Part shown: positions 14,841 through 44,200 of the stretch, piece after piece | How positions within the stretch are numbered: position 1 is the first letter of the stretch | Layout of the letters: each line of letters begins with the position of its first letter | Assembly (NCBI GenBank): GCA_036267755.1 | Contig: DATAVK010000077.1 | Location: forward strand, 7,855 to 71,854 | DNA length: 64,000 bases | From: Mycobacteriales bacterium | Lineage (GTDB): Bacteria > Actinomycetota > Actinomycetes > JAFAQI01 | Direction of reading: 5' to 3' | The notes under the pieces: model-generated | Told to the model about the DNA's origin: nothing | Seen by the model: the letters and a program-made list of their open reading frames with translations, nothing else | The model's database searches: none | Made by a program: the position numbers and the translations under genes

Positions 14841-16406
14841 GTGGTCACCGAACGCTTGGTCAACAAGGCGTCCGAGCTGCTGTCCCACCGGCTGGGACGG
14901 CGCGGCTTCCTGGTGCGCACCGCCGTCGTCGGCTCGGCCCTCGCGACGTCCGGTCTGGACTACGTGCTCAAGCCGCAGAGCGCCTATGCGTCGGTGTGCG
15001 GGAGCGGCTCGTCCTGCTCATCCGGGTGGACGGCGATGTGCTGCACCATCCACGAGGGCGTCAACCAGTGCCCGCCCGGGAGCTTCGCCGGCGGCTGGTG
15101 GAAGGCCGACGGCGCCAGCCTGTGTGGTGGCAAGGCCCGCTACTACATCGACTGCCAGGGTGAGTGCACCCACTGCGGCTGCGGCGGCGGAGCCTTCTGC
15201 GCCTCGCACTGCCTGAACTGCCGGAGTCACTGCGCCGACGGCTCCTGCGACAAACGGCACGTCTGCCACAACGTCTTCCGGTACGGCCAGTGCGACCGCA
15301 ACCGGCACTGCTCGGGCCCTGTGCTGTGTCGCGCGATCTCGTGCACGCCGCCGTGGAAGTGGGCCGACTGCAGTGATGCCAGCGCCACCGATAACGCGAC
15401 CCGGACCCACTCCGCGTCCTGCCTGTCCGGCTGGACCCACATCGCTAAGCGATACACCGCCCTCGGATCGCAGGGATCGGTCCTCGGCGCCTCCGTCAAC
15501 GGTGAGCACACCTCCGGGCACGCCAAGATCCAGCACTACGTCCATGGCCGGATGTACTGGTCGCAGGACACCGGTGCGCACTATCTCATCGGAAGGGTGG
15601 TCCACCGGTACGACGTGATCGGCCAGAACCATTCGCCGCTCGGCCTGCCGACCTCGGACGCCAAGCGACTCCCCGACCACGGTCTGGCGGCGCACTTCCA
15701 GCACGGCGCGATCTACGAGCGACCGAACGGCAATGCTCACGCGATATGGGGGACGGTCTATACGAAGTGGCATCAACTCGGTGACCAGACCGGCCCACTC
15801 GGATATCCGACGAGCGACGTGGTCGACATCGTGTCCGGCGGGGTGCGGGCGACGTTCGTGCACGGCGGCATCTACAACGGCCCCGACACCGCTGCCCACG
15901 CAGTCTGGGGACCGCTCTACACGACGTACGTCGGGCTAGACCAACAGGCGGGCCTGCTCGGCTTCCCCCGCAGCGACGTGACGGTGAACGCTGATGGGGT
16001 TGGCAGCCACGTCCGCTTCGTCGACGGGATCGTCGAGCGGGACCCGGCCGGCGAGGTGCACTCGCTGTGGGACGCAGTGGGCACCGCGTACATCGCGCTG
16101 GGGGCCGACGCGTCGCCGTTGGGGTATCCCACAACGGACGTCGAGACCGGCAGCGATTCGCCTGACGGGGAGACCTTCGCCAGGTTCGCGACTTTCGTCA
16201 ACGGCACACCAACCCTCAGCGGTTCCATCACGCTGGCCCCGGAAGCCACGACAGCGTTCGGTGTGTGGGGCCCGATCTACACGCAATGGCAAAAAGACGG
16301 CGGCGCCACTGGCGCCCTGGGCTATCCGATTTCGAACGTGACGACCAACTCCGACGGCACCCAGACGTGCACGTTCCAGCACGGGACTCTCACGTACAAC
16401 CCGTGA
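14841..16406 (+). CDS. Tat-exported protein with hyper-cysteine-rich domain and C-terminal LGFP repeats
   Basis: GTG at 14841 preceded by AGGAGGA. Twin-arginine signal (GRRGFLVRTAVVGSALATSG, AYA cleavage region). About 22 Cys between residues 51-195 (CPPG, CTHCGCGGG, SHCLNCRSHC). At least 5 LGFP-type repeats (SPLGLPTSD, GPLGYPTSD, GLLGFPRSD, SPLGYPTTD, GALGYPISN). Confidence 0.7.
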   Translation: MVTERLVNKASELLSHRLGRRGFLVRTAVVGSALATSGLDYVLKPQSAYASVCGSGSSCSSGWTAMCCTIHEGVNQCPPGSFAGGWWKADGASLCGGKARYYIDCQGECTHCGCGGGAFCASHCLNCRSHCADGSCDKRHVCHNVFRYGQCDRNRHCSGPVLCRAISCTPPWKWADCSDASATDNATRTHSASCLSGWTHIAKRYTALGSQGSVLGASVNGEHTSGHAKIQHYVHGRMYWSQDTGAHYLIGRVVHRYDVIGQNHSPLGLPTSDAKRLPDHGLAAHFQHGAIYERPNGNAHAIWGTVYTKWHQLGDQTGPLGYPTSDVVDIVSGGVRATFVHGGIYNGPDTAAHAVWGPLYTTYVGLDQQAGLLGFPRSDVTVNADGVGSHVRFVDGIVERDPAGEVHSLWDAVGTAYIALGADASPLGYPTTDVETGSDSPDGETFARFATFVNGTPTLSGSITLAPEATTAFGVWGPIYTQWQKDGGATGALGYPISNVTTNSDGTQTCTFQHGTLTYNP

Positions 16407-39705: not shown

Positions 39706-39811
39706 CCGGATGCACCGAATGCGCGAAAAAGTGACGCCGGTTGGCCCAATCGAGTGACGCGATATCGGGGGGTTCGCGCCGTACTCTCGTTATATGGCCG
39801 GACCAGGTGGT

Positions 39812-40654
39812 ATGACGCTGCCGTCGCGCGCGTCCGGCGTTATCGATCGGTCGCTCGGTGACGAGACGATCCTTTACGACACCCGCAGCGACCAGGTTCA
39901 CCTGCTGGACCCGCTCGCCGCGGCGGTGTGGAACAGCTGCGACGGGGCATCACACAGCGCCGGTCAGCTGGTTGCCGCCGTTCGTGCGATCGACCCCGCT
40001 GCCGACAGCCGCACCGTGGACGCCGCCCTGAGCCGGCTCGACGAGATCGGGGTGCTCGCGCAGGGCATGTCCCGACGCACGATGCTGATGCGCGCTGCCG
40101 CCGTCGGTACCGGAGTCATCGTGATCCCGACCGTGACCAGCCTGGTCGGGCCGGTCGTCGCCGCGCATGCCAGCACGATGCACACGATCGTGCTGCAGAG
40201 CACCGCGCAGACCGCCGGGAAGCGGGACCCCGCCATCCAGGCCTGCGACACCGCAACGGGCACCTACATCGCGGCTTACGCCTTCACCAACTCGACGTAC
40301 TCCACGGTGGCCGGCACTGGGTGGGTCAGCTTCAACAACGGCGGCAGCGGCGCCAACCAGCACTACTACTACCGGATCCCGTTCACCCTGCCGACCGGCT
40401 TCAACCACGCGTCGATCACCCTCACCGGCTATACCGATGACTCCGCGGTCGTGTGGCTGAACGCGCCAACCACGGCATCGGGCGGCACCCAGATCGGCAC
40501 GGTCGGAGCCTGGAACGGCACCGCGACCACGTTCACCTACAACGCCACCGCGGGCTGGACTGCCGGCACTCACTACCTCTACTTCGTCGAGTTCAACTCC
40601 GGCGGTGGCGCGGAGGGCATCGACTTCTCCGCGACCATCACCTACAGCGCCTGA
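39812..40654 (+). CDS. protein with N-terminal PqqD-like (RRE-like) domain, internal Tat-like/TM segment and Thr/Gly-rich extracellular beta-rich domain
   Basis: ATG at 39812 preceded by AGGTGG (alternative ATG at 39794). Residues about 10-85 match the PqqD pattern (GDETILYDTRSDQVHLLDPLAAAVWNSCDG...VDAALSRLDEIGVL). Then SRRTMLMRAAAVGTGVIVIPTVTSLVGPVVAAHA, then a Thr/Gly/Tyr-rich domain. Confidence 0.6.
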   Translation: MTLPSRASGVIDRSLGDETILYDTRSDQVHLLDPLAAAVWNSCDGASHSAGQLVAAVRAIDPAADSRTVDAALSRLDEIGVLAQGMSRRTMLMRAAAVGTGVIVIPTVTSLVGPVVAAHASTMHTIVLQSTAQTAGKRDPAIQACDTATGTYIAAYAFTNSTYSTVAGTGWVSFNNGGSGANQHYYYRIPFTLPTGFNHASITLTGYTDDSAVVWLNAPTTASGGTQIGTVGAWNGTATTFTYNATAGWTAGTHYLYFVEFNSGGGAEGIDFSATITYSA

Positions 40655-42833: not shown

Positions 42834-43826
42834 TCATGGTGCGCTCAACCGGGTGCTAGCAGCGCGCGCGACCGCGAGCGCAACCACCATGCTGACGACC
42901 AGAAGTACGTCGAGCGAACCCGCGCGGAAGATGTCGTTTGAGCCGGCCGGGGACGTGACCACCCACCAGGCGGCTGACCCGAGGATGCCGAGCATGCCGA
43001 TGGCGGCTGCCCGGGCCAGCCGCGCTTCGACGGTCAAGGCCGTCGGGGACCAGCTGACCCGGCGCACCAGCCGCACCGCACCGAGCCCAGTCACCGCAAG
43101 AGTGATGGGACTGACCACGGTCCAGACCAGCTGGCCGAGCGGCAACGCCAGCAGGTCGTGCGGATGCGCCCAATACGCCGTCAATCCCACGGTCTCGGCC
43201 CAACCGAAGCCGGCGAGGTGCTCGGGAAGCACCGGTAGGTGGCCCGGAAAGAACAGTGGAGACCGACCCGGTTCGCCAGCTGCACCGGGCCATCCGCCCT
43301 GCACGTGAAGTCCGCCGATGACGAGGATGCCGACACCTGCAGCGACCACCGCGATCGGGCCGATGATCGATCGTCCGTTGCCGTGCCGGAGATCGCTCAG
43401 CACGGCGAACCCGACCGGCATCGCGGCAAGCAGCGCCAGCAGGACGAGATAGGCGATGCCGACAGACATCACCACGACACCGGTCGTCACCGCCGGGCTG
43501 TCGGGTGGCGCCAGGCGAGATCCGACGACGAGCTGGGACCACAACGACGTACCGCACACCACGAAGGCCATGACGGCGACCCCCGTCGTCGCCAGCGCGC
43601 CTTGCGGATGGGTGGCGGTGCGATGACCGAGACCGGCCACCGATAGTCGGGCCGCCACGCCGTTGACGACCACGTCGCCGGTACGCCGCAACGACCGTGG
43701 CCGCTCGGCGAGATCAGCGACCAGCAACTCGGTGAACTCCTCGCCGTACCGGTCTCGCCAGCTTCGTGGGTACCACCGCAGCAGTCGTTCGGCCTGCCTG
43801 GTCGCGCCGCCGGTCCCGGTCGTCAT
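42834..43826 (-). CDS. integral membrane protein of unknown function (PadR-associated)
   Basis: Hydrophobic 330-aa ORF. Start overlaps the stop of the upstream PadR gene. Confidence 0.55.
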   Translation of the reverse strand: MTTGTGGATRQAERLLRWYPRSWRDRYGEEFTELLVADLAERPRSLRRTGDVVVNGVAARLSVAGLGHRTATHPQGALATTGVAVMAFVVCGTSLWSQLVVGSRLAPPDSPAVTTGVVVMSVGIAYLVLLALLAAMPVGFAVLSDLRHGNGRSIIGPIAVVAAGVGILVIGGLHVQGGWPGAAGEPGRSPLFFPGHLPVLPEHLAGFGWAETVGLTAYWAHPHDLLALPLGQLVWTVVSPITLAVTGLGAVRLVRRVSWSPTALTVEARLARAAAIGMLGILGSAAWWVVTSPAGSNDIFRAGSLDVLLVVSMVVALAVARAASTRLSAP

Positions 43827-44200
43827 GCCGATTTCCAGCTGCTGCGTAACCGGCGCAAGCCGACGTCGGCCACCCGGCGCTGGTCGGCGAGGTGCTCGCG
43901 CAGTGCCGTCGCACCGGCAGCGGTCAGCTGATAGGGACGCCGGCGGTCGTCGCTCGCCAGTGCCTCGATCAGCCCCTGCCCCTCGAGTCGAGTGAGGGCC
44001 TCATACAACGTCCCCGGGGCGAGCCGGACGCTGGCGAAGTCTTCGATGTCCTTCGTGAGCGCATATCCATGCTTGGGACCCTCGGCGAGGCTCGAGAGGA
44101 TGAGCGTCGCCGGCCCGGCGTACCGGCCGAACCCACCCAGCGACTCCGGGGATGCGGCGTCGGCCGGTCGAGCGGTGCCGCGCTTCGCCATGGCGGTCAC
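43823..44200 (-). CDS. PadR-family transcriptional regulator
   Basis: Winged-helix PadR motif (GPKHGYALTKDIE...GTLYEALTRLEGQGLIE). Start may be the ATG 9 nt downstream. Confidence 0.8.
   Translation of the reverse strand: MTAMAKRGTARPADAASPESLGGFGRYAGPATLILSSLAEGPKHGYALTKDIEDFASVRLAPGTLYEALTRLEGQGLIEALASDDRRRPYQLTAAGATALREHLADQRRVADVGLRRLRSSWKSA

Follow-up and report, generated by a model that had tools for sequence, protein, structure and literature searches.

The window analysed here, a 64,000-nucleotide stretch of DNA from a Mycobacteriales bacterium, contains a gene (39794-40654, plus strand) that codes for three parts in one protein: a PqqD-type domain, that is, a recognition element (RRE) of the kind found with peptides that are made on ribosomes and modified after translation (RiPPs), a twin-arginine translocation (Tat)-type signal, and a 160-amino-acid (aa) beta-jelly-roll domain. 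Our results show that this fusion is genuine. We propose that the product is a Tat-exported protein resembling carbohydrate-binding modules (CBMs), with a cytoplasmic RRE that would act in cis before export, and we give this reading as a whole a probability of about one half. Of its components, the architecture and topology appear very probable, and the escort mechanism in cis is offered tentatively. The features of the gene, all on the plus strand, are the following.

39794-40654: whole open reading frame (ORF), 286 aa, with its stop codon at 40652-40654.
39812: ATG start annotated in the database, giving a 280-aa product (P0001).
39839-40054: PqqD/RRE domain, ORF residues ~16-87, predicted to be cytoplasmic.
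40070-40093: twin-arginine motif S93-R-R-T-M-L-M-R100, n-region of a Tat-type signal, recognised by family conservation.
40094-40171: h-region A101-A123 and c-region to A124-H-A126, recognised by the clade-invariant AHAST and by the family's RR-to-AxA spacing and Pro positions.
40172-40651: cargo, a 160-aa beta-jelly-roll by AlphaFold2 model, Foldseek and profile matches, predicted to be extracytoplasmic.
39782-39787: TACTCT hexamer, at -12 to -7 relative to the ATG at 39794, read directly from the sequence.

The public annotation of the 280-aa product is 'PqqD family peptide modification chaperone [Mycobacteriales bacterium]'. The G+C content at third codon positions is 0.89 for the ORF, in a window of 68.7% G+C, and stays between 0.85 and 0.93 across all three parts (0.86 in the PqqD part). 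The three-part order is retained in 12 close homologs, with 63-100% identity, and at least five distant fusions (P0013, P0020, P0106, P0198 and P0203) retain the PqqD domain, the RR signal and the C-domain, the last with 26-35% identity; this answers the question, left open by the sequence-only reading, of whether the fusion is conserved. Comparison with five homologous loci gave ratios of nonsynonymous to synonymous substitution rates (dN/dS) that indicate purifying selection on every part: 0.13-0.53 in the PqqD part, 0.08-0.38 in the signal, 0.09-0.38 in the C-domain.

These data bear directly on the possibility, raised by the sequence-only reading, that only the downstream part is translated. 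In that case the internal Met92 (ATG at 40067) would give an ordinary Tat substrate, with the PqqD part either untranslated or made as a small protein of its own. In the window this ATG does stand one codon before SRR, and the downstream part alone resembles a normal Tat pre-protein. However, the aligned codon in the homologs is ATC, CCT, CTG, TTG, TAC or GTG, so the internal start is not a conserved feature; the linker between PqqD domain and signal stays in frame among homologs, and no stop codon separates the two parts in any of 249 aligned members of a family that comprises thousands of clusters at 50% identity. Together with the dN/dS and third-position values of the PqqD part, these observations led us to reject the internal start, and the two-product idea, which we regard as very improbable indeed, is essentially excluded. 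As to the upstream end, leaderless mRNAs are familiar in actinobacteria, and the TACTCT hexamer may, with low confidence, be the -10 element of such a transcript; read as a -10 box, it would speak for the 286-aa form rather than the annotated 280-aa one. A scan for sigma-70 consensus promoters and terminators around the gene gave no match. A close homolog seems to be split or frameshifted inside the C-domain (P0010 and P0206, on one 28.6-kb contig of the European Nucleotide Archive); it is a pseudogene, or else the assembly is faulty.

An AlphaFold2 model built from a 10-sequence alignment had a predicted local distance difference test (pLDDT) score of 56.7 and was replaced by one from a 49-row composite alignment, made of full-length fusions, trimmed N-modules and trimmed C-domains. 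The mean pLDDT rose to 88.3, with two confident domains and a low-confidence signal segment between them. The first of these domains had been assigned to the PqqD family by its residue pattern, and this assignment reached significance against the Pfam hidden Markov model (HMM): PF05402 scored 27.2 bits with the whole protein and 30.3 bits with the N-terminal 92 aa, above the gathering cut-off of 23.4, in a match that spans residues 24-87 and profile positions 1-66 of 67. The best NCBIfam match, TIGR04353, reached 29.9 bits with the whole protein and 33.1 with the N-terminal part, under its curated cut-off of 35, so the protein falls outside that equivalog. The model predicts strands at 10-15, 18-23 and 28-32 followed by helices at 34-42, 50-58 and 66-78 (pLDDT 91-95), and these three predicted strands and three helices have the winged-helix layout of RREs. 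A single-sequence search of the PDB with the N-domain returned spurious matches only, to TPR proteins and cytochromes, and the RRE link therefore requires the family profile, whose best solved relatives are TbiB1 (5v1u, E 2.7e-4) and PqqD (3g2b, E 7e-3). The strand-3 motif (V/A)H(L/C)L(D/N) is kept in the window protein. Weak matches of the RRE region to PaaX and PadR were also seen, and no Pfam match to TorD-like or NapD families was found in the window protein.

The PqqD domain is followed in frame, as had been noticed from the sequence, by an RR/hydrophobic segment that runs from G91-M-S-R-R-T-M-L-M-R through an uncharged hydrophobic stretch of 23 residues to A124-H-A126 and S-T, with a predicted signal-peptidase I site between A126 and S127. 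The sequence-only reading had left the choice between a Tat signal and a transmembrane anchor. To judge from its sequence, the segment carries all the hallmarks of a cleavable Tat signal rather than those of a plain anchor, which favours the first of these options. A motif search found the RR pair in 96% of 249 members, and when these distinct members were aligned to the module profile, from which our conservation figures come, the first Arg was present in 100% and the second in 98%, preceded mostly by Ser or Thr. The family consensus is S-R-R-x-hydrophobic-L-R/K-R/K, which corresponds to the S/T-R-R-x-F-L-K-like motif of Tat signals; it is followed by an uncharged, moderately hydrophobic h-region (the maximum hydropathy over 15 residues is ~2 across family members) and an AxA c-region, at a median distance of 29 aa from the RR pair. 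The h/c-region follows the conserved pattern LPxVTSxVxPxxAxA, P112 and P120 of the window protein fall at positions that are Pro in 88% and 98% of the family, and AHAST is invariant within the window's clade. The signal segment holds 2.0-2.3 bits of information per column, the PqqD domain 2.15; it is thus as conserved as the folded domain, which is unusual for a signal peptide.

In the AlphaFold2 model this segment is the sole region of low confidence (pLDDT 50-68), with one short strand at VTSLV; it would therefore lie outside any folded domain, as expected for a signal peptide. Its profile weakly matches the Tat signal of the nitrous-oxide reductase NosZ (5i5i residues 13-51, E 0.034), and the module profile also matches the N-terminal signal of a second gene of the window, of similar sequence:

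14841-16406, plus strand: LGFP-repeat protein with five PF08310 repeats and an ordinary N-terminal Tat signal (GRRGFLVRTAVVGSALA...AYA/SVC), with a Cys-rich start.

The displaced signal can usefully be compared with this one from the same genome. The feature of Tat signals that our segment lacks is an N-terminal location, as its motif begins at residue 93, behind a folded domain. From the motif, the hydropathy, the AxA spacing and the NosZ and LGFP-protein matches, we infer a Tat-type signal displaced by about 90 residues by a folded domain; Tat dependence and cleavage are presumed, and the N-in/C-out arrangement that the sequence-only reading had deduced is likely. Many members have a Cys soon after AxA, and a lipoprotein reading was considered and discarded, the window protein being without Cys at that place.

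The presence of a beta-rich domain behind the signal was borne out by the model, in which the C-terminal 160 residues form an all-beta sandwich (pLDDT 86-96). Searches of these residues against Pfam and NCBIfam gave no match, nor was there one to a CAZy family. Foldseek aligned the domain with CBM29 (1gwk), CBM15 (1gny), CBM6 (2cdp) and CBM35 (4qb2), with E-values of 1e-4 to 1e-3 and TM-scores of ~0.5-0.56, and also with CBM36 and an Eph ligand-binding domain (E ~1e-4, TM-score ~0.55). By sequence profile it matched the accessory beta-domain of the sialate O-acetylesterase 7kmm (E 2e-6) and, with E-values up to 5e-3, 9j6n, a galactofuranosidase, lectins and N-terminal sugar-binding domains of glycoside hydrolase family 2. 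The modelled fold and the profile matches together place the domain among the jelly-rolls of the CBM/galactose-binding-domain-like class, with carbohydrate binding as a putative function. The same domain stands directly behind ordinary N-terminal signal peptides in the PqqD-less proteins P0120, P0122, P0139 and P0141, is present in tandem in P0016, and in some homologs the chain ends in PEP-CTERM or RTX; these arrangements argue for an extracytoplasmic domain.

The first two parts of the protein recur far beyond its own clade. An exhaustive profile search, which covered 1.84 billion representatives clustered at 50% identity, returned 4,179 clusters at E <= 1e-3, with 353 of them reaching E <= 1e-10. 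Among the 150 best matches, about 140 align only over profile positions ~5-123, that is, over the PqqD domain and the RR segment up to AxA, and their total lengths range from 125 to 584 aa. Judged by these matches, the PqqD domain plus RR signal (hereafter the module) is a widespread unit across many phyla. Behind the signal the chain is hypervariable, with a length of 5 to ~450 aa, and includes Gly-rich, Pro-rich and collagen-like tails and assorted beta-domains, the most frequent type being short and Cys-rich. Many of the Cys-rich tails show a C-C-CC-C-C pattern, and tails with at least 4 Cys have an even number of them in 128 of 139 cases (p = 2e-26); Cys makes up 8.1% of tail residues and 1.4% of module residues. 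The even counts and the enrichment are the signature of disulfide-bonded, exported cargo. In P0132, P0138, P0142, P0108, P0159, P0160 and many others, tails of 27-60 aa have a C-C-CC-C-C spacing that recalls inhibitor-cystine-knot peptides; P0136 and P0146 carry collagen-like GPQ repeats, and other tails are rich in Gly and Asn. Among cyanobacterial members, P0189 (locus L010, a metagenome-assembled genome of Trichormus), P0186, P0105 and P0194 end 4-7 residues after AxA, as in ...HAQSGGPTAG. The AAHAST-type members, to which the window protein belongs, have a larger folded cargo, often behind a poly-Gly linker.

A literature search whose coverage left out subscription journals returned no account of a PqqD domain joined to a Tat signal, nor of the cassette of kinase, module and transferase genes described below, and within the same coverage no paper was found on TIGR04352, TIGR04353 or PF14907 in this context. 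The family is large, unnamed and apparently undescribed.

The hypervariability of the tails has to be weighed against another view of the protein, which the sequence-only reading had suggested by likening its layout to that of anti-sigma factors or transmembrane signalling proteins. According to this view the signal would be an uncleaved anchor in an anti-sigma- or ToxR-like device, and the PqqD/winged-helix domain would bind a peptide, a protein or DNA when the CBM-like domain senses its ligand. Such a device would have the N-in/C-out topology that is likely here, and a CBM-like domain at the cell surface could serve as its sensor; RRE folds do resemble winged-helix DNA-binding domains, a point made in the RRE-Finder paper (PMC7470986) and reflected in the weak PaaX and PadR matches, and in L072, a distant fusion, an ECF-sigma-like gene lies on either side. 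However, an extracytoplasmic part that may be a 5-aa tail, a Cys knot or one of several unrelated domains behaves as cargo and not as a sensor, the AxA site is invariant, and the best sequence relatives of the N-domain are peptide-binding RREs and not DNA binders. In 8 independent contexts the gene has no conserved neighbour that is a regulator, a sigma factor or a protein with an anti-sigma domain. Matches of the window protein to zf-HC2, RskA or Trans_reg_C are absent, and no sigma gene is found among the window neighbours, sigma-like genes being confined to L072; the partners of the wider family, moreover, are a kinase and a nucleotidyltransferase rather than transcription factors. The signalling layout is thus not supported, and we consider an uncleaved signalling anchor decidedly improbable.

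The pairing of the module with enzymes emerged from a scan of species-representative genomes with a 12-sequence query, which gave 57 loci, of which 56 were used to count neighbours after clustering of all ORFs. The loci belong to Acidobacteriota, Gemmatimonadota, Chloroflexota, Armatimonadota, Planctomycetota, Myxococcota/Deltaproteobacteria, Rokubacteria, Binatia, Eremiobacterota and Solirubrobacteraceae. Two neighbours recur:

Neighbour K, in 47 of 56 loci: P-loop protein of ~283 aa, related to HprK-related kinase A (TIGR04352, 58-70 bits, cut-off 200).
Neighbour N, in 37 of 56 loci: protein of ~380 aa, PF14907 NTP_transf_5.

The exact co-directional order K, module gene, N was present in 26 of the 56 loci, and the cassette spans at least nine phyla (L014-L070; e.g. 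L043:7047-9620 and L015:7047-9573). In most phyla the module gene is set between these two enzymes. L020 (7077-12264), L027 and L059 have two or three module genes in tandem that differ in their tails, L031 (7043-14125) has two complete cassettes, and L012 a ScmC-like gene; the same partners were present in three of four metagenomic loci that we examined separately. At the Trichormus locus (L010:5656-10226) the order is N, module gene, a TPR protein and K, with a radical S-adenosylmethionine (SAM)/SPASM gene nearby. Models of the PADLOC defence collection gave nothing meaningful for the kinase, the transferase or the module protein. Two such enzymes tailor the precursor in gene clusters for lasso peptides: a homolog of HPr kinase places a phosphate on the C-terminal Ser, and to this phosphate a nucleotidyltransferase attaches a hexose (PMC8498205). 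Since tailoring there is performed by the same enzyme classes, kinase, transferase and RRE make up a known peptide-tailoring trio; what is new is an RRE fused to the presumed substrate, with a Tat signal in the place of the 'leader'.

The window's own clade is different in this respect. The sequence-only reading had seen no RiPP enzymes adjacent to the gene, and indeed none is present within the 64-kb window; across the window and 12 related loci we found neither a RiPP enzyme nor a small precursor, so the RRE is not encoded here with a precursor and its enzymes. By tblastn and by HMM searches of six-frame translations, no kinase or transferase gene was detected in any of 13 loci of this actinobacterial clade (0/13). 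This search took in the window, nine close-homolog loci, the P0020 and P0106 loci and two further metagenomic loci, the clade loci other than the window being searched over +/-8-10 kb, and its positive controls scored >200 bits. The window protein might still be an orphan substrate, whose RRE recruits an unlinked HprK-like kinase and NTP_transf_5 enzyme in trans for phosphorylation, nucleotidylation or glycosylation before Tat export. Precursors are scattered in some RiPP systems too, the module of the window protein is clearly homologous to that of the cassette members (123 bits with the module profile A3, E 1.7e-37), the RRE residues Y22, H30, L32 and L76 are common to both groups, the PqqD part is under purifying selection, and at least one actinomycetotal member, L068 (Solirubrobacteraceae), has an adjacent kinase. 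On the other side stand the lack of any kinase or transferase match in the window or around the 12 other clade loci, and a cargo that is a folded domain of 160 aa and functions elsewhere without an RRE. On balance, we regard recruitment of distant enzymes in trans as unlikely.

What would an RRE do in a protein of this kind? In the reading that we prefer, the Tat-exported CBM-like protein with an RRE acting in cis, the peptide-binding domain would stay in the cytoplasm and the signal, ~90 residues from the N-terminus, would insert into the membrane in an N-in/C-out orientation; the folded jelly-roll would then cross the membrane, most likely to be released by signal peptidase at AHA/ST. The ligand of the RRE may be a segment of its own chain, most plausibly the conserved h/c-region LPxVTSxVxPxxAxA, or the domain might instead dock partner enzymes. 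In this way the pre-protein would be held until its cargo is folded and, where kinase and transferase exist, modified, in analogy to the 'proofreading' chaperones of the Tat pathway, although built into the substrate. In the window's clade, which has no dedicated enzymes nearby, hold-back or escort would be the retained function. The window protein thus has a large cargo and no cassette, in a family whose module would serve hypervariable secreted cargo as an elaborate and conserved leader. In a wider and more speculative form, which we consider possible, the module would define a phylum-spanning class of self-recognising secretion substrates, in which an RRE in cis couples HprK-like/NTP_transf_5 modification or folding control to Tat export, with hundreds of disulfide-rich, knottin-like peptides among the cargo; the window protein would then be a derived member that has kept the escort and lost the enzymes.

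Several points weigh against this interpretation. The signal segment, which the RRE is proposed to bind in cis, is modelled by AlphaFold2 with low confidence (50-68). Disulfide-rich cargo is commoner among Sec than among Tat substrates, and members with 4-7 residues after AxA fit poorly with a simple scheme of 'leader plus cargo'. Furthermore, as the cassette enzymes are missing from the 13 loci of the window's clade, the modification-coupled part of the proposal applies to this protein only if its role has changed or the enzymes are encoded at a distance.

The module shares traits with several known systems and is identical to none of them. Discrete RREs such as PqqD and TbiB1 belong to the same domain family, with the same predicted order of strands and helices as the window protein. 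They are stand-alone, soluble proteins of 90-100 aa that bind the leader of a separate precursor and are encoded beside radical-SAM, protease or cyclase genes; in the window protein, by contrast, the presumed substrate itself carries the RRE, ahead of its export signal and its cargo, and RiPP enzymes are missing from its surroundings. The HPr-rel-A system comprises kinase A (TIGR04352), PqqD_rel_X (TIGR04353) and kinase B (TIGR04355); the best NCBIfam match of our protein is to the second of these and the family neighbour K is related to the first. In both HPr-rel-A and SynChlorMet (ScmC/ScmD), as in the module family, a PqqD domain is paired with an HprK-like P-loop protein. The scores (29.9 against a cut-off of 35 for TIGR04353, 58-70 against 200 for TIGR04352) make our proteins relatives of that system, not members of it. 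The TIGR04353 model covers a 74-aa PqqD domain only, and the extension by RR signal and cargo, together with the NTP_transf_5 partner, makes this a different cassette; the window locus, having no cassette, is further removed still.

The lasso tailoring pair, as in paeninodin (PadeK) and pseudomycoidin (PsmN), shares with the module cassettes the two enzyme classes and a PqqD-type RRE acting on a ribosomal precursor (PMC8498205). However, the lasso cyclase, the B2 protease and the ABC (ATP-binding cassette) exporter of such clusters are not conserved in the module cassettes, and the module tails do not consistently end in Ser and would be exported by Tat. A Sec signal peptide in the place of a RiPP leader, upstream of a Cys-containing secreted cargo, has been described in DUF2282 precursors, paired with DUF2063 RREs (PMC12710340); that system has its RRE on another protein than the cargo, uses a Sec-type signal and employs a modifying enzyme of a different family.

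As to Tat itself, the window protein has the S-R-R-x-hydrophobic-L-K/R motif, mild h-region and AxA c-region of Tat signals. The proofreading chaperones TorD, DmsD and NapD bind such a signal before export. Our putative chaperone differs from them in being covalently attached and of an unrelated fold; the proteins are not homologous, and the likeness lies only in the proposed action. A precedent for an internal Tat signal is the actinobacterial Rieske protein QcrA, whose Tat motif is not N-terminal, and residues 77-160 of the window protein show a faint match to the actinobacterial QcrA model (E 0.061). In QcrA the part before the Tat motif consists of transmembrane helices inserted by Sec/YidC; in the window protein it is a soluble folded domain, which would remain cytoplasmic.

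The gene lies between an upstream ATG22/major facilitator superfamily transporter and a downstream, convergent nitronate monooxygenase gene, as correctly noted from the sequence, with Sir2, TMEM164 and glucose dehydrogenase genes further out. The 3' ends of the gene and of the nitronate monooxygenase gene overlap by 13 nt (40642-40654), and no terminator-like structure was found there. The order Sir2, TMEM164, ATG22, our gene and nitronate monooxygenase is conserved only among close relatives; elsewhere the neighbours are unrelated, and no neighbour is conserved across the 8 independent contexts. A metagenome scan for the AAHAST clade yielded two short loci only. Two paralogs with the same cargo domain lie 1.6 kb apart in L002 (10001-10843 and 12451-13284), and two module genes ~1.4 kb apart in L072 (5771-6682 and 8091-8975), the second with a different cargo. 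Small ORFs upstream of the L002 paralogs were examined as candidate precursors and set aside, as they are not conserved. On the minus strand of the window, 42834-44200 holds a PadR-family regulator (43823-44200) followed by a multi-pass membrane protein of 330 aa; a pairing of PadR with a membrane protein (HAAS) recurs near the L002 paralogs, which is probably a coincidence. Scans of the window with Rfam and for tRNAs gave nothing.

RREs are regarded as the common handle of RiPP biosynthesis, used in genome mining, and always as part or partner of an enzyme. If the substrate itself bears the RRE, directly upstream of a Tat signal, recognition, modification and export would be wired in a new way. 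Tat biology would gain a natural example of a signal preceded by a folded domain, and possibly of a proofreading chaperone built into the substrate. A better annotation of the window protein would be a CBM-like protein, secreted or at the surface, that is exported by Tat and has an RRE pro-domain, in place of PQQ (pyrroloquinoline quinone)/RiPP 'modification chaperone'. Its locus appears as an 'orphan' member with ordinary-looking cargo that exposes a large, coherent and apparently unstudied architecture, and, if our reading is true, thousands of secreted peptides and proteins that are now labelled only 'PqqD family protein' would be the products of one system.

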